Assembly: GCA_030616305.1 (NCBI GenBank)
Contig: JAUWXQ010000001.1
Coordinates: 1-40,498 of the forward strand
DNA from: Hadesarchaea archaeon
Lineage (GTDB): Archaea; Hadarchaeota; Hadarchaeia; Hadarchaeales; Hadarchaeaceae
Direction: 5' to 3'
Length of the DNA: 40,498 nt
In this document: positions 13,467-26,533 of the stretch, piece after piece
How positions within the stretch are numbered: position 1 is the stretch's first letter
How the letters are laid out: every line of letters begins with the position of its first letter
Program-made: the position numbers and the translations under genes
The notes under the pieces: generated by a model
The model's input: only the letters and a program-made list of their open reading frames with translations
Databases searched by the model: none
Told to the model about the DNA's origin: nothing

Positions 13467-14876
13467 TCATTTATCTTCTGGACTTAATAATTCTTTCCGC
13501 ATCATGTCCTTCAGCGCCCTGCTCAGGGCTTTCACCTGATCCTCCTCGTTCCCGACGATTGCTCGGTGGGGTTCGCTGAGTGCCTCCCGCGTCAGGACTT
13601 TCTCAGGGTCAAGCCCCCAAGCTCGAACTATCTCCTTAAGCGCTTCTATCTTTGAGAGGCTCGTTTTGGGTCTTATCGATAGTCCGGACGCAACGTAGAT
13701 ACCTCGAATGAACTCGATGCCTTTCATGTCGATGTCGTGGTAAGTCGAGATTGTGTGTCCCATCATGTACTCAATGTAATCGCGATCCACACCCAGAGCC
13801 GAGAGTTGAGTTCGAAAGAATTTGCGTATCGAGTGTGCTCTAAGCTTGTATCTCCTTCTGGAACTGCTTGATATTACCCCCGCTTTTCTGTAGAGCGCGT
13901 GGACTGTGTTGTAAATCTGTTTGGGCGTTACTGGTGTCACCTTCGCGCGATGCTTGTTCCTGATGATCGGGCTCTCATCGGTTATCACCTCAGGTGGGAT
14001 TCCCCTTACAACGACATATCCATCCGAGCAGTGGTACTCCCTCATGGTTCCGCGCCGCCTCGCGTCCAGATACGCTTTTATATACTCAACGGCTTCCCTG
14101 CCGAGAAATGTGTCGTAATCGTGATACTTTCCCTTGGTGATTTCGGCCTCCACGTGCACATGTATCGGTATTATCCCCTTTTCCAAGTCATCCCTGATGT
14201 GTCGGTACTTCAGCTTCGCCAGCGTGCCTATTCGAAACCCCCCAAGGGCCAAGCACAAGACTATGACTTTGTCCCTCAGGTCTGCGAGATCTATGACCTT
14301 TTGGAGTTCTTCAGGTTTCGGGGCCCTGTCCTCGTATTTGACTACCCTCCTGAGCTTGTACGGTAGCTTCGGCTCCAGTTTGTTAGTTGAGTAAAAGGTC
14401 TTCACCCCTTTGACGTAGGAGCTGATCGTGCATGGGGCAAGCCCATCTGCCTTTAGCCCTCCAATGAAATCGTCGATCAGCTTGGAGTGCTCTTCTATCT
14501 TTTTCAAGTTCGGCAGGCTGTCCGCATCCTTGCACTCTCGAATAAGGTCATCCGGCTCTCGCCCGGTCCACCTGCAGAACAGGCACACGCTCCACACATA
14601 GTTGCGTAGGGTGTATCGGCTTGAGGTCAACCCGCGCCTCAGGTATTTTGCCATCTCAAATAGGCTTTGGTTGCGACAGGCAAACGGTATCAAGTTTGGA
14701 GTATTCTCCAACAAACTTTCGATTATGTAGTTGTACACGTCTTCTTCCCCACGACCAATACCGGCGGGGAGTTCTATGGTGATGGGCTTGTTGAGCTTGT
14801 AGCCGTTTGAGCTGTGCGTCAGCTCCCGAATAGTCACTCCTTTTTCCTCGCTACAAACGCATTGTGCATTTTCCAT
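13467..14876 (-). CDS. Tyrosine recombinase / phage-type integrase
   Basis: ALGGFRIGTLAKL (Arg I), RAHSIRKFF (H-x-x-R), MGHTISTYH (His) and a downstream Tyr (IRGIY). N-terminal SAM-like core-binding region. Confidence 0.85.
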   Translation of the reverse strand: MENAQCVCSEEKGVTIRELTHSSNGYKLNKPITIELPAGIGRGEEDVYNYIIESLLENTPNLIPFACRNQSLFEMAKYLRRGLTSSRYTLRNYVWSVCLFCRWTGREPDDLIRECKDADSLPNLKKIEEHSKLIDDFIGGLKADGLAPCTISSYVKGVKTFYSTNKLEPKLPYKLRRVVKYEDRAPKPEELQKVIDLADLRDKVIVLCLALGGFRIGTLAKLKYRHIRDDLEKGIIPIHVHVEAEITKGKYHDYDTFLGREAVEYIKAYLDARRRGTMREYHCSDGYVVVRGIPPEVITDESPIIRNKHRAKVTPVTPKQIYNTVHALYRKAGVISSSSRRRYKLRAHSIRKFFRTQLSALGVDRDYIEYMMGHTISTYHDIDMKGIEFIRGIYVASGLSIRPKTSLSKIEALKEIVRAWGLDPEKVLTREALSEPHRAIVGNEEDQVKALSRALKDMMRKELLSPEDK

Positions 14877-15406: not shown

Positions 15407-15661
15407 TTTTTTGGAATTTTAGAAATCCTCAAGACTTCAAAAGTTGATTACTTTTTCAAGGGAGGAAAAACTCATGCTATTTAAAACCACGCGAAATCTT
15501 TTTAAGAAAAGGATGATTCGGTCAGCCTTGCCTGAGCGTATCATACTGACCATAAATATTTTTCGCAAACCTTTAAATAATCATCATACTCTCTGTGGTT
15601 TTCTGCGATTTTTTTCTTGGTGGAATTACTGCATCATACAAAACAGAATACGGGTGAAAAA

Positions 15662-16885
15662 ATGATAATGGATATGGAATACTATAAGGCTCTGGAGAAA
15701 GAAGTGGAGAAAGAATTGGACGAACTCTTCAGCGACGACGAAAAAGAACTGCCCGAGCCAGAGGATATTTCTAAAGAAGTTAGTGGAAACTCTGGTCACG
15801 GTTCCTCACCTGAAAAAACCGATGTTCCAAAACCTGACGAAAAAAGCGACCGAGGTGTTGCCATATACCTGCGGGTCAGCACCGACCGGCAGGCAGAACA
15901 CGGGTACAGCCTTCAGGACCAAGAGGAGAGGCTGAGAGAAGAGGCACGGAGGAGGGGTTTTGCCCGTCTCTACAAAGTCGAGGATGCGGGCGAGTCGGGG
16001 ACAAACTTTGAGAGGAAGGGGCTGAGCGAGATTCTCCAGCTGGCTACTGGAAGAAAGATAGACACGGTTCTCGTGACGAGCCTCGACAGGATAGGGAGAG
16101 ATCTGATTGAGTCCCTCCATTATGCCCGTATGCTCCGGGAACTCGGAGTCAAAATTGCGGCGATGAGCGGGGAGACCGACATAGCGACGGAGGAGGGCCT
16201 CATGTATGCAACGATACAATTCCTTTCGGCGGAGCTAGAAAACAAGAGGAGGACTAAAACCTCGATTGCGGGCAGAGTTCAGAGCTTCAAACAAAAGCAC
16301 TGGAACAAACCCGTACCAAAGGGATACCTGAAAAAAGCGGACGGCTGGATAGAAAAGGACCCACGATGGGAACAGGTCATCAAAGACGTGTTCAAACTAT
16401 TTTTAGAGACTGGGAACTACCAAACCGTAAAGCACGTGATAAACGAGGAGCACAAAGAAACCCTGCCAAAACCCCTGACGCGCCAGCAGGTAAGGCAGAT
16501 AATATGTGATCCGGTATATGTTGGCAGGCCCCAGTACTCTGGGAAAGCCTCGAAAAAGGAGTTTGGAAGGGACATCACCGTGGAGGATTTGGCCCTAGCA
16601 TATGTGGATCAGAACACTTTTGAACGGGCTCGGGAGATATCCAAAAAAATTAAAGAAAAATACTCCCGCGGAAAGGAAAATGTAATCAATGCAGGGGAGC
16701 TCGTTAAGAAGTTCGGATCTACAATCTTGGAGGAAATCCCGCACATCGCCGTCATGTGTCCAGAGTGCGGAGAGAGGATGGTTAGGAATGGCACGAAAAT
16801 ACTCGACGGTTGCATCGTTCAGAACTACCTCTGTAGAAGTTGTAACAGACAGTGGAGACCTTGCAAAGAATGGGTAGGTCGGTAA
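15662..16885 (+). CDS. Large serine recombinase (resolvase domain + recombinase domain + C-terminal zinc ribbon)
   Basis: VAIYLRVSTDRQAEHGYSLQDQ (catalytic Ser), SLDRIGRD, a recombinase-domain region, and CPECGERM...CRSCNRQW. ATG at 15662 preceded by GGGTGA; the ORF track starts at 15617. Confidence 0.85.
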   Translation: MIMDMEYYKALEKEVEKELDELFSDDEKELPEPEDISKEVSGNSGHGSSPEKTDVPKPDEKSDRGVAIYLRVSTDRQAEHGYSLQDQEERLREEARRRGFARLYKVEDAGESGTNFERKGLSEILQLATGRKIDTVLVTSLDRIGRDLIESLHYARMLRELGVKIAAMSGETDIATEEGLMYATIQFLSAELENKRRTKTSIAGRVQSFKQKHWNKPVPKGYLKKADGWIEKDPRWEQVIKDVFKLFLETGNYQTVKHVINEEHKETLPKPLTRQQVRQIICDPVYVGRPQYSGKASKKEFGRDITVEDLALAYVDQNTFERAREISKKIKEKYSRGKENVINAGELVKKFGSTILEEIPHIAVMCPECGERMVRNGTKILDGCIVQNYLCRSCNRQWRPCKEWVGR

Positions 16886-18411: not shown

Positions 18412-18570
18412 CTATGAAAGATAAGGGTCCAAATAAAATTTTCCCCTCTGCTTGAAGCTCATCCCAAAATCCAAAAATATCTTCTTGTCGTCATCCTCCA
18501 GCAGGATCTTGTTTCCACCGATTTCATTGATGCCACCATAGAAAGTCAATTTTGTAATCATCGGTTTCAT
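18412..18570 (-). pseudogene. 52-codon stub of a metallo-beta-lactamase / beta-CASP (RNase J / aCPSF-like) gene N-terminus
   Basis: Hand translation gives MKPMITKLTFYGGINEIGGNKILLEDDDKKIFLDFGMSFKQRGKFYLDPYLS then a stop. It ends before the HxHxDH motif. Its ATG overlaps the upstream stop (ATGA). Confidence 0.6.
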
Positions 18571-19169
18571 CTCATGCTTTCTAATTCCTTTTTATTAGAA
18601 TAGACTTTCACATCCCTTTGGTTACTTAACCATTTTCTATACTCTTCTTCAAACTCAAACTTTTCTCGGGTTGATAGAAAAATAATGTACCGACCCGAGG
18701 CAGGGGAAGTTACCTCCCTTTTGAGTTTATCGAAAAGATATTCCATCTCATCTTTCCACCCACTATCTGTTTTGTTAAGTTTCGTTTCAATTCCAATGCT
18801 CAATGGCACCCGCTTTAAATCCTCTCCGTCTTTTGGGAAATTTCGGCTATTTGGATACAGTATTGCGATATCCAATCTCCCATGCGTTTCTTTTTTAGCA
18901 TTGCCACGTTTGTATTTCTCCTTTGTAATTTTCTCCCTAACCAGCAAAATCAGATCTCTTCCATCTTTTGTCTTAGCGAAAAGCATGTTTTCTTTTTGAA
19001 GCTCATTGGCAAGAATGTAGTAAAGCAATTCCTGAAACTGTTGTTCATTCCCGAACTTTTCTTGATTTTTGCTGAAGTAACCTATCGCTTGTTCGATGCT
19101 CCTTTCTACAATTTCTCGTAGCTTTCTATCGATCTCGCCCACGTCGCCGTAGAAGGTCAAAGTCGTCAT
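18567..19169 (-). CDS. PD-(D/E)xK-like nuclease-fold protein
   Basis: 200-aa ORF. GRLDIAILY...LSIGIETKLN fits D-x(n)-E-x-K. The N-terminus MTTLTFYGDVGEI mimics the MBL stub's N-terminus. Confidence 0.55.
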   Translation of the reverse strand: MTTLTFYGDVGEIDRKLREIVERSIEQAIGYFSKNQEKFGNEQQFQELLYYILANELQKENMLFAKTKDGRDLILLVREKITKEKYKRGNAKKETHGRLDIAILYPNSRNFPKDGEDLKRVPLSIGIETKLNKTDSGWKDEMEYLFDKLKREVTSPASGRYIIFLSTREKFEFEEEYRKWLSNQRDVKVYSNKKELESMR

Positions 19170-19401: not shown

Positions 19402-19596
19402 ATGAACTACCGCGAACTCAAGGAGCTTGCGAGGCGTGCCGATCGGGCAAAGGGTGAGGAGCGCAAGCGGTTAGTGGAGACGCTGATCCAAGAGCTACCC
19501 GCGCTGGACCCGTTTGAGGGTTGTGATGAATTCACGATTTGGCTTGCGAAACTGGTGGCGAGGGTGAAGTGGTATGACGCCCAAGGGCTATCCTGA
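19402..19596 (+). CDS. Small helical hypothetical protein whose 3' end carries repeat copy 1
   Basis: 64-aa ORF ending ...TIWLAKLVARVKWYDAQGLS. Confidence 0.4.
   Translation: MNYRELKELARRADRAKGEERKRLVETLIQELPALDPFEGCDEFTIWLAKLVARVKWYDAQGLS
19540..19572. repeat. 33-bp perfect direct repeat, copy 1
   Basis: tggcttgcgaaactggtggcgagggtgaagtgg, identical to 20213-20245. Confidence 0.9.
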
Positions 19597-19678
19597 GGGT
19601 GAGCATGGCCTATTAGTAAGGGGATTAAGTAAGATGTTGATACTTGCATCGATGGCGAACAAGGGATGGTGAAATCGT

Positions 19679-20158
19679 ATGGTTAGAGAGGAAGTCCCCC
19701 AGAAATGGATTGTCGTTGATGACGAGCTTGTTGAAAAAATCAAGCGGGTCATCGACTTCGCATTGGTGTATGAAACCGCGACCCGTGGAAAGCGAAAGCT
19801 TGGAATCACCGCAGAGGTGGGTGAGATTCTAGTTTGTCATCAGTTTGGACTTCGCCTGATGTCGAATGTTCGTTCTGAAGGATTTGACGCGCTTGACGGC
19901 GATGGGAAGCGGGTTCAAATTAAGACCCGTCGGAGCGAAACAAAAGGTTTACCACGGGATGTTGGCCGGGTAGGTCAGTTTTCGAAACATCCATTCGACT
20001 ATGCGATGCTAGTGCTCTTGGATCATGATTACAAACTCTGTGAAGTTTGGCGGGCAGAGTATGACAACCTACTACCAATTATCGGGAAGGAGAAGAAACG
20101 GAACCCTCACATATCATCGTTTAAACGTGTGGCAAAAAGGATCTTCCCTCCGAGTTAG
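19679..20158 (+). CDS. Small PD-(D/E)xK-like nuclease (restriction-endonuclease-like fold), no adjacent methyltransferase
   Basis: AEVGEILVCHQFG...EGFDALDGDGKRVQIKTRR fits E...D...QIK. Appears homologous to the 178-aa protein at 22623-23159. Confidence 0.55.
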   Translation: MVREEVPQKWIVVDDELVEKIKRVIDFALVYETATRGKRKLGITAEVGEILVCHQFGLRLMSNVRSEGFDALDGDGKRVQIKTRRSETKGLPRDVGRVGQFSKHPFDYAMLVLLDHDYKLCEVWRAEYDNLLPIIGKEKKRNPHISSFKRVAKRIFPPS

Positions 20159-20212
20159 GAATCGGACTTTCACCCATCAATCAGTTCGATGGCTTCAGCG
20201 AGGGGGCGGTGT

Positions 20213-20245
20213 GGCTTGCGAAACTGGTGGCGAGGGTGAAGTGGG
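20213..20245. repeat. 33-bp perfect direct repeat, copy 2
   Basis: Identical to 19540-19572. Sits in a 26-codon mini-ORF, MASAEGAVWLAKLVARVKWVDVSEFN (20189-20269). Confidence 0.9.
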
Positions 20246-20297
20246 TTGATGTTAGCGAGTTTAATTAGAGATTTAGATATAATTGAGGTCGGTAAAA

Positions 20298-20681
20298 ATG
20301 GACTCCAAGGGTTTAGACGAACACGGATTTAAAGGATGGCATCCATTAAACAAAATTACTGTTTCAGATGTTCCCTACAAACAAGGGGGTGTTTACGCAA
20401 TTAGACTAAAAACCGCTTTGGAAAGAAAGATAGGCAAGTCTGATATTCTTTATGTCGGTTCTTCTGATAATCTGAAGAGACGAATTTTTGGGAACTATCT
20501 GGGTGGCGTTGGTGGAAAAACTACTCAAAGAATCCACAAATTGTTGTTTGAAGAAGGGTATTCAAAAAGGACAGAAATTAGTTGGGCTATTACTGAAAAT
20601 TTTAGAGAACTGGAAAAAGACTTGAGGATAGGGTATTTACGGGAACATAAGGAGTTACCGCCTTGGAATAAACAATTGTGA
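20298..20681 (+). CDS. GIY-YIG-like nuclease-domain protein
   Basis: GGVYAIRL...DILYVGSSDNLKRRI...E fits GIY / YIG / Arg / Glu. ATG at 20298; the track starts at TTG 20283. Confidence 0.6.
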   Translation: MDSKGLDEHGFKGWHPLNKITVSDVPYKQGGVYAIRLKTALERKIGKSDILYVGSSDNLKRRIFGNYLGGVGGKTTQRIHKLLFEEGYSKRTEISWAITENFRELEKDLRIGYLREHKELPPWNKQL

Positions 20682-20797
20682 GGGTTGGTATCAAGTGAAA
20701 CTGAAGTGGGGCGATGCGGGCGGGATTTCGACTGGTTTGAAGCGTGAGTTATTCCCTAAAATCGTGCGGAGATAAGGCTGAAAGATAAAATTTGCAT

Positions 20798-22622: not shown

Positions 22623-23159
22623 GTGCCCAGGGAAGAGACAATAGAAATTATTGTACGCAACAAAACCGCAACAGCGAGAATCAGAAAGTGGCACAGAAGA
22701 GACATAAAAATCTTGAGGAAAGCTCTTCATAATTGGGGTAATTTGGTAAAATTTTTGAAGAAATATGCAAGTCGCAGGACAAATCTTCCTGAACTCATTA
22801 GTGAGGCGTTGTTCTGTATTTATACTGGTTCTGTTCAAGTTTTGGACGTGAAGAATGTTGGCAAAGGGTTTGACTGTTATAACGAAAAAACCAAAAAAAC
22901 ACAGCAGATCAAAGGCTCTTCAAGAAGAGATTCGCCTTCCAGTTTTGGCCCGCATGAAAAATTTGATGAAGTGTATTGGGTTGTAATCGAGGAAACAAAT
23001 AGTAGGTTCAAATTTGAAATTTATAAATTGTCAAAGAAAAGCGTTGTAACTCATCCAAGTTTCCGGCCACTTGCTCGGGAGGGCAGAAGACCAAGATTTC
23101 TTCTCTTGGATATCGTTAGGGACAAAAAGCTAAGGCCCATAGCAAAAGGATACATCTAG
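22623..23159 (+). CDS. Small PD-(D/E)xK-like protein, candidate cognate type II restriction endonuclease
   Basis: ELISEALFCIYTG...KGFDCYNEKTKKTQQIKGSS...SSFGP. Convergent with the C5-methyltransferase and 3 nt from it. GTG start. Confidence 0.5.
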   Translation: MPREETIEIIVRNKTATARIRKWHRRDIKILRKALHNWGNLVKFLKKYASRRTNLPELISEALFCIYTGSVQVLDVKNVGKGFDCYNEKTKKTQQIKGSSRRDSPSSFGPHEKFDEVYWVVIEETNSRFKFEIYKLSKKSVVTHPSFRPLAREGRRPRFLLLDIVRDKKLRPIAKGYI

Positions 23160-23162
23160 ATT

Positions 23163-24557
23163 TCATTTGCACCGGTTTAGGGTATCTTTAACCAGCAAAG
23201 CTATGGTTTTGCTGGCAAGGGGAGGAACAGCTTCACCTATCTGCCTGCGCACTTCTGAAGGACTGCCCTTGAAAAGAAAATCGTCGGGGAACGTTTGAAT
23301 CCTCGCCCTCTCCCTATTTGTTAATTTTTGTCTATCTCTTCTGTAGTGATAGCCCCAAGTCCCCCCGCCACCCCTGGCTATGATCGTTGGCGACGGCTTC
23401 AGCGGGTGAATTCGGCGGTATATGTTGCTCATGAGCCCCGTTACTTCGTGCGAGGTTCCTCTCACGAACTCGTGGTTTTCTCCAGGCGGAATAAAGCCCA
23501 TCCTTTTTTTAATGGCTTCTTTTTCGTTGAGTATCTGGTGGGTGTTGTCTTCCAAGACTAAATCGTTAACAGGCTTCTTCCAGTAGCCCGATTCTTTTAG
23601 AACTTCTTCGTGTTTTTTCATGACATCTTCTTTTATTTTTTCGTTGATGGAAGTCGAAAGGCCGTTCACAAAAAGGTAGTCGTGCCATATCTCGAGCCTG
23701 TATTTGCTCCACACGTTTGGGAAATACTGATTGCTTCTAATAGACGATATTTTTTCTGATATATCGCCATATTCTCTCATTAGTTCTTTATAGTCTTCTT
23801 CCAGCTGATCAAGCGTTTTTCCTGAAAATACTTCAATGGGCGTAATGGGGAATGAACAAAGTAAATTTGGCCCCAGCAACTCCTCGCTTATCTTTTGTTC
23901 CAGTCCCAGCAAATCAAATTTTTTTGCCATGTCTTTTCTTATCCCGATTATTATAATCCGCTCTCTCTGCTGGGGCGCCCCAAGCTTGGAAAAGTTGGCA
24001 ACGGAAGAGAATAATAATTTGTAGCTCTCCTGCCCGTTATTGTTTTTTGCTGTTTCAACGGATTTCCTGTGGTTTTTCCACATCTCGCGCCAGCTTAAGT
24101 TAAGGTTTTCGAAGTCCTCAACAATTTTTCTAAAGGCTAGGCCACCGTTTACAGAAGTGAGACCTTTCACATTCTCGAAAACGAACATCTTTGGCTGTAG
24201 GGCGACCAAGGCACGCACAAAATGGACATAGAGCCTGCCTCTTTTTACACCGATTCCTTTCCGCTTTTCGGAGCCCCTGATCAAAGAAAAATCCTGGCAG
24301 GGCGGACCGCCGGTAACCACATCTATTTCTTTAGAGCACAAGCTAGAAAAATCGACTTGCTCCACATCGCCGGTAAAAAAACTGCCTTCGGTGGCCTTGG
24401 GATCCTGTGTAATTTTCAATCCAAATCTGCCCGAAAAAGTCTCGGCAGAGGGGCGATACAAGTCGTTGGCCCAAACGACCCTGAACTTTTCTGTGAGTTC
24501 AAACCCCAAGTCGAGGCCACCACATCCGCTGAACAGAGAAACTATGTTGAATTTCAT
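23163..24557 (-). CDS. DNA (cytosine-5)-methyltransferase
   Basis: Motif I SLFSGCGGLDLGF, motif IV GGPPCQDFS, motif VI ENVKGL, motif VIII QQRERIIIIG, motifs IX/X TFPDDF...RRQIGEAVPP. Long variable region between motifs VIII and IX. Confidence 0.9.
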   Translation of the reverse strand: MKFNIVSLFSGCGGLDLGFELTEKFRVVWANDLYRPSAETFSGRFGLKITQDPKATEGSFFTGDVEQVDFSSLCSKEIDVVTGGPPCQDFSLIRGSEKRKGIGVKRGRLYVHFVRALVALQPKMFVFENVKGLTSVNGGLAFRKIVEDFENLNLSWREMWKNHRKSVETAKNNNGQESYKLLFSSVANFSKLGAPQQRERIIIIGIRKDMAKKFDLLGLEQKISEELLGPNLLCSFPITPIEVFSGKTLDQLEEDYKELMREYGDISEKISSIRSNQYFPNVWSKYRLEIWHDYLFVNGLSTSINEKIKEDVMKKHEEVLKESGYWKKPVNDLVLEDNTHQILNEKEAIKKRMGFIPPGENHEFVRGTSHEVTGLMSNIYRRIHPLKPSPTIIARGGGGTWGYHYRRDRQKLTNRERARIQTFPDDFLFKGSPSEVRRQIGEAVPPLASKTIALLVKDTLNRCK

Positions 24558-24617: not shown

Positions 24618-24884
24618 TTATTTGACTATCTCCCATCCGGACTTTTTGTTGCAGTAGATAAGGAACTCCTTTTGCATGACGTTTTGCACGCATCTGAGCC
24701 TGTGCTTCCATTCTGGCTGGTGCGTGGGGGTCACTGCATAGTGAGTACATTTCTCGTGGTCGTTGCAGTACCCCGGACATCTCTTTTTGATAATTTTGTA
24801 AAGTTGAGGCGTTGTTTTGGGGCTGTCTCGGAGGGCCCTTAATATCTCCCCCCTGAACCGCTTGGTTCGTTTGTTCATGTGCAC
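24618..24884 (-). CDS. Small winged-helix protein (Mrr_N-like wHTH) with a Cys/His cluster
   Basis: RGEILRALRDSPKTTPQLYKIIKK...EWKHRLRCVQNVMQKEFLI...KSGWEI resembles Mrr N-terminal-type wHTH. CPGYCNDHEKCTH insert. Lies between the recombinase and the methyltransferase. Confidence 0.5.
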   Translation of the reverse strand: MHMNKRTKRFRGEILRALRDSPKTTPQLYKIIKKRCPGYCNDHEKCTHYAVTPTHQPEWKHRLRCVQNVMQKEFLIYCNKKSGWEIVK

Positions 24885-25942
24885 ACCAACGACTCTTTTT
24901 GCTTGTTGGTAAAACCACTTTTGGTGAAGGGCCCATATGACCGCGTGAGAGGGGGCGCCGTAAGTCGTTTTCCTTGATTACCTCCCTCTGCCTCCTTTAG
25001 AAGCTCAAAGTACTCATTGAATATTCTGTCTATTTTCGCCTTCCTCCTGTCATCGGGCATCGGCGACCTCTTGGCTCCGCCGTCCTTGAACCTGTGCATA
25101 GTTTTGGTCGCCTTCTCGAAAAGCTCGTCTTTAATGATCCTACACTCCTCAATAACATCATCGACACCGGCAACTCTATAGGCTCCGGTGTAAAGCTCGT
25201 TAGCTAATACGTCCCTCACGGCTCTGGAATTCCACGGTTTGCCTTTTTTCGTCAAAATGTTCTCTTTGTTAAGCTCGAAAGCGACCTGATCAATCGACCT
25301 GTTTTTTACATACCTTTTGAAGATCCGCCGGACGAGCCTGGCCTCTTTCTTGTTTACCTTGAGTCCCCCATCTTCCGTCTTGTCGTAACCCAGCGGAGGG
25401 TGATCGTTTGGCCATTTGTGTTGTTTTGCGAGCGCGAACATCCCCATCCTCGCCCTCTCTCCGATCAGCTCACGCTCGAGTTCGGCCACCGACGCCAGAT
25501 TCCTGTAGTTGAACCTTCCCACCGAGGTCGTAGTGTCTATATACTCAGTGACGCTACAGAGCCCCACCCCCCACTCGCGGAGCTGTCTTTCCACATTCAC
25601 GAGGTCCACAAGCGACCGACAGAACCTATCGAGTTTCCAAAAGATGATCACATCAAATGCCCCTGCTTTGGCCCGCTCCAGCATCATCTGGAACTTCGGC
25701 CTTTCGATAGTTCCCCCGCTCACGCCGTCCTCCTTGAACACGTAGCTCGCTCTCCATCCTTTCTTGTCGCAGTAGTCCCAGCACCGCCTGATTTGCTCCT
25801 CCATGCTGTAGCCGAACCTCTGGTTTGGGGAGGAGGTTCTCGCGTAGATGGCGGCGAGCACTGCGTTTTTCTCGTCTCTTTTGTTTTCAGTTCTGGTAAA
25901 TATTGCAGTACAAATTTCCTGCTCAGCTTTAGCTCCGGCCAT
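24875..25942 (-). CDS. Serine recombinase (resolvase catalytic domain + recombinase domain)
   Basis: AAIYARTSSPNQRFGYSMEEQ (catalytic Ser), KLDRFCRS, PLGYDK...ARLVRRIFKRY. ATG at 25942 preceded by GGAGAGAGG; the track starts at 25969. Confidence 0.85.
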   Translation of the reverse strand: MAGAKAEQEICTAIFTRTENKRDEKNAVLAAIYARTSSPNQRFGYSMEEQIRRCWDYCDKKGWRASYVFKEDGVSGGTIERPKFQMMLERAKAGAFDVIIFWKLDRFCRSLVDLVNVERQLREWGVGLCSVTEYIDTTTSVGRFNYRNLASVAELERELIGERARMGMFALAKQHKWPNDHPPLGYDKTEDGGLKVNKKEARLVRRIFKRYVKNRSIDQVAFELNKENILTKKGKPWNSRAVRDVLANELYTGAYRVAGVDDVIEECRIIKDELFEKATKTMHRFKDGGAKRSPMPDDRRKAKIDRIFNEYFELLKEAEGGNQGKRLTAPPLTRSYGPFTKSGFTNKQKESLVCT

Positions 25943-26533
25943 TCCTCTCTCCTGTATGCTTAAGCACACAAGAGTGTATATGCTAAAGAGTATTTAAATG
26001 TTTTATAATTGTCCGTAACCAAAATCCCAAGGTGAACCCCCCACTACCACTGCAGCAGCTCCAAGGGGGCCTGAGAAACGGCAACAAGATGTTTGAGTTA
26101 AACATAGCTCCCCCCACATCGCTTGCGAAGTTGAATAACGCCCCCACAAAGAGGAGCATAGAAAATCCACATTCGTTTCAGTGTTGCCCTCACAGAAGAT
26201 ACTGATAAGAAAGGAAGCATTAAAAACATTAAGACATTGTGTTATTAATGTTGTTACATGAAGTTGCGCAGGGGGTTATCAAAGGAAATTGGAGGATTTA
26301 TGGTGGATGAAGAAATCAAGAAATGGGCAGAAAATGCTGAAAAAGGAATTGAACTGGGAAAACCTGCCTATATTGTGAAAAGCGATATTACCTCCAACAG
26401 TTCAAACAAACGAACTCACACATCGATGAAAGTTATTCCAACGTCGCACCCTACCCGCTTGAGATGCTCCATGAGATTTAAAGGCAAATCGCTCCCAACT
26501 TCCAAATTTGCAAATTGAGAGGTGCGAGGGAGT

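Follow-up and report, generated by a model that had tools for sequence, protein, structure and literature searches.

A 40,498-nucleotide stretch of the forward strand of contig JAUWXQ010000001.1 from a Hadesarchaea archaeon (assembly GCA_030616305.1), here called the window, carries a small array in which two nuclease genes are stacked downstream of a 64-codon gene that we term S. Profile and alignment comparisons show that all three junctions of this array are derived from S and that genes have repeatedly been inserted and exchanged at the S site. Our preferred interpretation, to which we assign a probability of about 0.6, is that S is a recombination and insertion hot spot within a mosaic mobile defense island and that S-derived homology, together with gene conversion, explains a perfect 33-bp direct repeat found on both sides of the first nuclease gene. 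An earlier inspection of the letters alone (the sequence-only reading) had described the locus as an alternation of junction, nuclease, junction, nuclease and junction. This layout is confirmed, with the junctions being an intact S, an S relic and an S tail. The features of the array, all on the plus strand, are the following.

19402-19596, plus strand: intact S, 64 amino acids (aa), predicted to form three helices; family hidden Markov model (HMM) score of 131.5 bits; a conserved accessory gene of Hadarchaeota/MSBL1
19540-19572, plus strand: copy 1 of the 33-mer, exact match; S codons 47-57, encoding WLAKLVARVKW
19679-20158, plus strand: cargo 1, 159-aa PD-QxK nuclease of the DUF6998 family (PF22522), a BisI-family homolog
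20167-20268, plus strand: 5'-truncated relic of a second S allele (codons ~32-64 and the stop), ending in LSPINQFDGFSEGAVWLAKLVARVKWVDVSEFN and the stop
20212-20244, plus strand: copy 2 of the 33-mer, exact match; codons 47-57 of the S relic
20298-20681, plus strand: cargo 2, small GIY-YIG nuclease, 127 aa from the ATG at 20298 or 132 aa from a TTG at 20283; Pfam GIY-YIG match with E=4.8e-6
20695-20729, plus strand: third S-derived piece, with the motif GAAGT-GGGGCGATGCGGGCGGGATTTC at 20703-20729; codons ~56-64 of an S allele ending in KWGDAGGVS and a stop

There are two exact occurrences of the 33-mer, TGGCTTGCGAAACTGGTGGCGAGGGTGAAGTGG, in the window, whereas zero are expected from shuffled sequences. 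No further match with up to three mismatches was found in the window, and there is no additional copy in the genome to which it belongs (877 kb in 58 contigs). The sequence-only reading located copy 1 correctly but placed copy 2 one base too high, at 20213-20245, and this offset led it to assign copy 2 to a 26-codon mini-open reading frame (ORF) starting at the ATG at 20189. That ATG opens another frame, which reads MASARGRCGLRNWWRG up to its stop; in the frame encoding WLAKLVARVKW, the sole start before the copy is a GTG at 20209. The two copies do bracket the 159-aa gene, now matched to DUF6998 in Pfam. The DNA around them is dissimilar at the nucleotide level, as had been stated, but in frame copy 2 runs on as a relic of S. 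Thus, the 33-mer is not a dedicated repeat element but the block of codons 47-57 coding for the core of helix 3 of S. The two copies cease to be identical on either side of it because the family varies there, at codons 41-46 and 58-63. Synonymous-codon identity in the S family is 0.48 for codons 47-57 and 0.49 elsewhere, so that the DNA of the 33-mer is under no special constraint within the family.

Among independent loci, the best matches to the 33-mer reach 32/33 (L030) and 30/33 (L023, L024 and L031), so that full identity of two alleles is only slightly out of the ordinary; 33/33 is reached by none of the 171 pairs of independent S loci. The perfect 33-mer would then represent homology of two alleles that encode the same 11 residues. 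A short gene-conversion tract may have homogenized it, but conversion is not needed to explain the repeat. Recombination between the copies is predicted, as proposed before, to leave an intact 64-aa ORF, the product after loss of cargo 1 being a 64-aa S that ends in VDVSEFN and a stop. An assembly artifact was considered and rejected, given that a chimeric join at the common 33-mer would delete the insert rather than duplicate it and that independent samples contain two of the three junctions.

The homologs of S and their pattern of substitution indicate that it is a real, conserved gene. We recovered 50 homologs, mostly of exactly 64 aa, the named ones coming from Hadesarchaea and MSBL1, and the ratio of nonsynonymous to synonymous differences (pN/pS) is 0.28 among 16 loci. 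The AlphaFold model consists of three helices (pLDDT of 72) and retrieves no fold match from the PDB at E<1; the sequence likewise has no family match in Pfam or NCBIfam. Strong matches occur in 6 of 61 related genomes, with the window's own genome counted, and S is accordingly called accessory. Several of these genomes have multiple copies or fragments: G028 has six matches, and JABUBO010000001 carries two copies separated by 13 kb. The neighbors of S in other loci include restriction-modification (R-M) genes and serine recombinases, and in one genome (G012) S directly follows mre11-rad50. Searches of viral contigs, plasmids and phages (IMG/VR, PLSDB and INPHARED) recovered neither S nor the terminal motif described below.

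The sequence around copy 2 is, on the strength of its homology, part of a relic of an S allele other than the intact one. Positions 32-63 of the S HMM align to 20167-20262 with 45.9 bits, against 9.6 bits for the best reversed control, and tblastn retrieves the same relationship with E=1.2e-6. The relic is 88% identical in nucleotides over 78 nt to the functional S of L030; against the intact S of the window, nucleotide identity is 44% in codons 38-46 (counted by hand) and 33% in the tail. The nearest DUF6998 loci, L074 and L075, which come from two different samples, align to window positions 19679-20263 with 82% identity, a span that includes the gene, the junction and the relic. Upstream of their DUF6998 gene, they are unrelated to the window and have no S within 282 nt. 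The segment of L074 that matches the 33-mer is identical at 26 of 33 positions, with all 7 differences within the first 18 nt. Between the window and L074, the relic has accumulated 6 synonymous and 6 nonsynonymous changes, a pN/pS of 0.26 that is like the 0.34 of functional S. This value agrees with recurrent gene conversion in which intact S copies are the donors and relics the recipients, as far as substitution counts can indicate. It could alternatively mean that the relic is translated; no start codon or frame relation to DUF6998 that could provide a translation route is common to the window and L074.

Three observations concern the same junction. The 3' end of the DUF6998 gene contains an A5 run in the window (20128-20160) and an A8 run in L074 (735-760). 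Relative to DUF6998, the S relic lies in the -1 frame in the window; in L074, the two share a frame that is interrupted by a single TAG. As single-stranded DNA, the plus strand of 20160-20297 folds with -18.1 kcal/mol (z=-3.5), which beats all 200 shuffles; this pairing is lost in L074, and neither of the remaining junctions folds.

The third junction, which closes the cargo stack at its distal end, is, by its reading frame, the tail (the final ~9 codons) of yet another S allele, the third in the window. Its 27-nt terminal motif, GAAGTGGGGCGATGCGGGCGGGGTTTC, reads K-W-G-D-A-G-G-V-S-stop, has the same length as the family C terminus KWxDxxxxS plus stop and is the native 3' end of the intact S in L078 and L079. 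The sequence-only reading had seen at 20695-20716 a degenerate copy of the 33-mer shortened by about 12 nt. As a 33-mer this piece does not survive scrutiny, since its 73% identity over 26 nt is a chance-level alignment like those of many chance families and the S profile does not detect it; it stands as part of the 27-nt motif and thus as the tail of another S allele. A 21-nt core of this motif, with 0-1 mismatches, lies on the same strand downstream of S in L023, L024/L028, L027, L029, L030, L034 and L053, and a diverged copy with 3 mismatches follows an S fragment in L012. It also occurs without a nearby S, once in contig 23 of the window's own genome (L067) and three times in G023, the loci with such solo copies being L067, L069, L071 and L072. 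Apart from the window copy at 20703-20729, its positions are as follows: L023:7741, L024:829, L027:1692, L029:4660, L030:1156, L034:1158, L053:5022, L067:1502, L069:1503, L071:115 and L072:590-617 on the minus strand.

Over 12 loci, the core has 6 mismatches in 252 nt, whereas the synonymous divergence (pS) among functional S genes is 0.72. The motif is found once per locus, with genes that differ between loci on both sides, and in 6 of 9 cases (by eye) it lies 9-48 nt past the stop of a co-oriented cargo gene. Neither the motif nor the junctions match an Rfam family or a tRNA (ARAGORN), the best local match to the 27 tRNAs of the genome being 10 of 27 nt, and within the loci no direct or inverted partner of the motif rises above shuffled controls. 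The solo copy in the window's own genome (C23:3836-3856; L067:1503) has one mismatch and lies 345 nt downstream of a gene for a 233-aa protein that is HNH-like by eye, with no S fragment nearby.

We collected ~40 dereplicated loci with S from genomes and metagenomes and searched each of them for matches to the S profile and to the terminal motif. An order of S, cargo, and relic or motif was found in L020, L023, L024, L027, L029, L030, L034, L044, L046, L047 and L053, and the arrangements are given below together with two further loci; numbers in parentheses after S are codons.

L029: S, 133-aa ORF, motif
L053: frameshifted S, VRR-NUC gene, motif
L030: S, Zn-ribbon gene, motif
L023: S, 194-aa ORF and rhomboid-domain gene, motif
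L034: S, 219-aa minus-strand ORF (PD-(D/E)xK-like by eye; no Pfam hit), motif
L027: S, HEPN gene and one more gene, inverted, motif
L024: S, 172 nt with no gene, motif
L047: S(1-20), 157-aa ORF, S(18-62)
L044: S(2-46), two ORFs, S(38-55)
L046: S(7-47), inverted Zn-ribbon gene, S(25-55)
L020: S(1-33) fused to a 229-aa ORF, S(26-46)
L037: S, HNH gene
L035: S, HEPN gene

The cargo across these loci thus comprises BisI-like, GIY-YIG, VRR-NUC, HNH, HEPN, Zn-ribbon and rhomboid types. It had been suggested that related genomes be searched for different genes between the copies, and the outcome is positive: eight loci have S, nonhomologous cargo and the terminal motif, and no pair of these eight S-to-motif cargo segments is similar in nucleotides. 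The clearest evidence for exchange of cargo between conserved flanks is, in terms of aligned sequence, the pair L030 and L053. These loci agree in the S flank, in the motif and in the 58-aa ORF that follows the motif on the right (RHH-like by eye; 87% identity over the available 82 nt), and between these flanks a Zn-ribbon gene in L030 stands against a VRR-NUC gene in L053. Accordingly, of the earlier proposal that cassettes are gained and lost at a conserved junction, the cargo turnover is upheld by the relatives, but the junction is S coding sequence in which the breakpoints of other loci range over codons 20-58. With this spread, there is no single conserved crossover site. The overlap between the S pieces of a locus varies from 0 to 33 codons, and in several loci the duplicated pieces are diverged alleles with only short identical blocks, as in L044, where the block is 13 nt and lies where the 33-mer starts. 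About nine loci hold isolated S fragments only, indicating that S is often broken. The cargo is mostly co-oriented with S (~20 of 25 first downstream genes, counted by hand), with spacers of 29-91 nt; inverted cargo is found in L046, L034 and L027, and the Zn-ribbon gene is on the plus strand in L030 and on the minus strand in L046.

In several of these loci, S is preceded by a gene for a ~120-150-aa protein (M..KRLILTPGDFLARRFDEGY..., a membrane protein by eye), the end of which overlaps S (L024:88-468, L025:5615-6004, L039:5624-6004, L040:3005-3460 and L053:3131-3487). This partner belongs to no Pfam or NCBIfam family, and a search of the window's own genome for its 126-aa version gave no hit. 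In L053, it is separated from S by two inserted genes, of which one codes for a GIY-YIG nuclease.

Turning to the cargo of the window, BisI enzymes cut GCNGC only when it carries methylated cytosines, and sequence homology together with a PD-QxK active-site motif identifies cargo 1 as a homolog of this family of m5C-dependent restriction enzymes, with the corresponding activity and specificity being predictions. It matches the BisI-family enzyme Eco15I (8q5m) with E=3.2e-10 over residues 43-149 and NhoI weakly (E=0.6). Its VQIK motif is the counterpart of the catalytic QIK form of the (D/E)xK motif in Eco15I (PMC11347163), which, like NhoI, belongs to this family of modification-dependent restriction endonucleases (PMC11347163). 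The DUF6998 family has 224 homologs in bacteria and archaea, including Chloroflexi, Dehalococcoidales and Acidobacteriota, and distant members (e.g., L073) have no adjoining S relic. The gene following copy 2 had been called GIY-YIG-like by inspection, and its Pfam match bears this out. The nearest GIY-YIG locus, L077, aligns to window positions 20228-20706 with 85% nucleotide identity, from codon ~52 of the relic through the GIY-YIG gene to the base before the terminal motif, and differs in both flanks. The two cargo units, DUF6998 with the relic and the S tail with GIY-YIG, overlap in the tail of the relic, and their recurrence in aligned relatives marks them as old, independent modules.

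Under our preferred interpretation, the array would be a stack of single-gene insertions into the 3' part of S, each of which would have left a working S upstream and pushed the older S remnant downstream. The cargo would travel linked to S fragments, with S-derived sequence providing portable homology for integration and exchange by homologous, homeologous or short-homology joining. Gene conversion from intact S would keep the relics S-like, and cargo 1 could be lost through the direct repeats without damage to S. Several points weigh against this. The mechanism of recombination is deduced from its putative products, and gain and loss at the 33-mer itself is a prediction. The left junction consists in the window of the intact S, an 82-nt spacer and DUF6998; L074, with no S in the 282 nt upstream, offers no counterpart from which its history could be read. 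A Campbell-type single crossover inside the 33-mer is disfavored, as the tail of the relic in L074 matches the tail after copy 2 and not that after copy 1. In 40 genomes, we found no empty site or deletion allele of the window locus and no collinear relative of it. The excess of synonymous changes in the relic, for which ~2.5 would be expected under neutrality (p~0.02; binomial, by hand), comes from a small sample of 12 substitutions. Finally, a decaying relic would not stay as conserved as the terminal motif has, which hints at a sequence-specific function of the motif for which our interpretation gives no account.

That conservation speaks for a dedicated cassette system of a nonintegron type, in which the 3' end of S and the motif would be the site of a site-specific recombinase, encoded in the island or elsewhere, that inserts and excises single-gene cassettes. 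We consider such a system unlikely. It would account for a single-copy motif whose 21 nt vary by 0-1 mismatches among 12 loci and for its placement past the cargo stop in most of the cases inspected. The presence of the motif without S, beside an HNH gene (by eye) and other uncharacterized genes, the predominant co-orientation of the first downstream genes with S and the occurrence of recombinase genes near S in the window, L031 (serine) and L049 (tyrosine) would also be in keeping with it. It is difficult to reconcile with the scatter of S-side breakpoints and with cargo in both orientations; moreover, the cargo segments have neither a site nor a fold in common, a partner copy of the motif is missing, and no recombinase is consistently adjacent to S. 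The bolder form of this idea, that the 3' end of S together with the motif is the attachment site of an undescribed, nonintegron archaeal cassette system that stacks nuclease and defense genes, with the motif bound by a recombinase or by the S protein itself, we regard as improbable. Integrons proper have been reported in 3-4% of Hadarchaeota genomes (Ghaly et al., 10.1101/2022.02.06.479319). The array resembles them in its mostly co-oriented single-gene cargo stacked below a putative fixed platform and in the turnover of this cargo between relatives but differs in having no adjoining IntI or attC hairpins, in junctions that are relics of coding sequence and in some inverted cargo. The earlier statement that no integron integrase and no attC-like fold are apparent is borne out by profile scores and DNA folds: the tyrosine recombinase nearest the array scores 64.7 bits against NF040815 (cutoff of 220) and has no TIGR02249 hit, and the three junctions, on both strands, fold with z values of -0.3, -3.5, +2.7, +0.1, -0.2 and +2.6, the single stable fold not being conserved in L074. 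Between the cargo stop and the motif, other loci leave no more than 9-48 nt, and Rfam has no match to the junctions.

Insertion with long target duplication, by which the BisI-like gene would have entered S and duplicated 33 bp of its target, has little probability in our estimation. Elements of this kind are recognized by a direct repeat of >30 bp around an insert of <20 kb with no mobility gene, by the inclusion of an R as well as an M gene in this insert and by a relative whose genome has an empty site with one copy of the repeat (PMC2853133). The examples of Nobusato, Furuta and Kobayashi include 46-bp repeats overlapping gene 3' ends and cover restriction Types I-IV, and their survey recovered no archaeal case (PMC2853133). 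Here, a restriction-enzyme-like gene lies in a 639-bp one-gene insert without a mobility gene, between exact 33-bp repeats overlapping a gene 3' end, and the repeats could later delete or amplify the insert. However, the insert has a Type IV-like R gene only, and the 40 genomes offer no collinear empty-site relative for comparison. The repeat lies inside longer diverged S segments and is flanked by S-like sequence of another allele, unlike what a fresh duplication would leave, and the same target has been hit by many cargoes in many lineages. Further, the junction of DUF6998 with the relic predates the split from L074, which has no upstream S. Free-standing homing endonuclease genes, whose nucleases would cut intact S and be copied in during repair, are more doubtful again. 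GIY-YIG, HNH and PD-(D/E)xK genes do occur as single-gene insertions in or beside one conserved gene, with patchy presence in relatives, and GIY-YIG, HNH and VRR-NUC cargo would fit nucleases of homing families. The remaining cargo (BisI-like, HEPN, Zn-ribbon and rhomboid) is too diverse for all of it to target S, the BisI-like, HEPN and Zn-ribbon types not being of that kind; the closest relatives of the DUF6998 gene are in unrelated bacterial contexts, the insertion points vary, the duplicated pieces come from different alleles, and the polymorphism seen at S loci is the replacement of cargo between L030 and L053. It is very improbable that no mechanism is involved and that two decaying S paralogs flank an unrelated gene by coincidence. 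Independent alleles do match the 33-mer at 30-32 of 33 positions, and S is multicopy in some genomes (G028 and JABUBO010000001), but S pieces flank cargo in >10 independent loci, the relics become progressively shorter downstream, cargo-relic units are common across samples, and one swap of cargo between conserved flanks is documented (L030/L053).

Two known arrangements come close to the recombination hot spot that we favor. Tandem islands at the 3' ends of tRNAs or other genes also arise by serial insertions that restore an intact gene and leave a row of displaced 3' fragments in the form of direct repeats. In the S loci, by contrast, the units are single genes of 0.45-0.65 kb with no integrase of their own and no identical att core, the breakpoints vary, and the target is the gene for a 64-aa accessory multicopy protein. 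In the defense hot spots of enterobacteria (P2/P4-type and core-gene ones), conserved flanks hold variable cargo that is exchanged by recombination in the flanks. The S loci share with them conserved flanks around highly variable defense or nuclease cargo but are distinguished by one flank being a 64-codon gene that is broken and remade with relics and the other being a 27-nt motif only. What is new here is a variant of insertion hot spot in a little-studied archaeal phylum. Hadarchaeota are uncultured archaea of the deep subsurface, and gene exchange among their genomes is almost uncharted; this family of loci provides a concrete, recurrent place where single nuclease or defense genes are gained, stacked and swapped, with a history that is legible from the leftovers of S. 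If the exchange runs on short homology alone, it would be an archaeal counterpart of bacterial defense hot spots and of the mobility of restriction genes by long target duplication; should a recombinase act at the invariant terminal motif, the S loci would amount to a new cassette system. In practical terms, S and the motif form a simple sequence handle for finding variable defense cargo in Hadarchaeota genomes.

The array sits in a mosaic island with recombinase, R-M and TIR genes, and 40 related genomes contain no DNA-level relatives of this island. A tyrosine recombinase is encoded 4.5 kb from the array (13467-14876, minus strand), and there are two large serine recombinases (15617-16885 and 24875-25969). 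Other genes of the island code for a C5 methyltransferase, a Bsp6I-like endonuclease, an HhH-GPD glycosylase and an ATP-cone-TIR protein. The BisI-family gene lies ~2.5 kb from the gene for the Bsp6I-like endonuclease (Pfam RE_Bsp6I), which is followed by the C5 methyltransferase gene (22623-24557). If this methylase modifies GCNGC, cargo 1 and the Bsp6I-like nuclease would have opposite methylation needs in one cell, an odd pairing.

Upstream of the array, a 52-codon stub (18412-18570, minus strand) reads by eye like the N terminus of an MBL/beta-CASP-type gene; it has no Pfam hit and matches DNA in six related genomes. A 200-aa ORF just upstream of it (18567-19169, minus strand) begins with a similar MTTLTFYGDVGEI, and the two together suggest a further insertion in which the beginning of the target gene was copied. 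A 63-codon ORF, MLFKTTRNLFKKRMIRSALPERII... (15475-15666, plus strand), lies just upstream of a serine recombinase ORF and out of frame with it. It resembles the N termini of 451-480-aa ORFs located ~3 kb from S in two other loci (L031:9742-11184 and L049:8547-9902).

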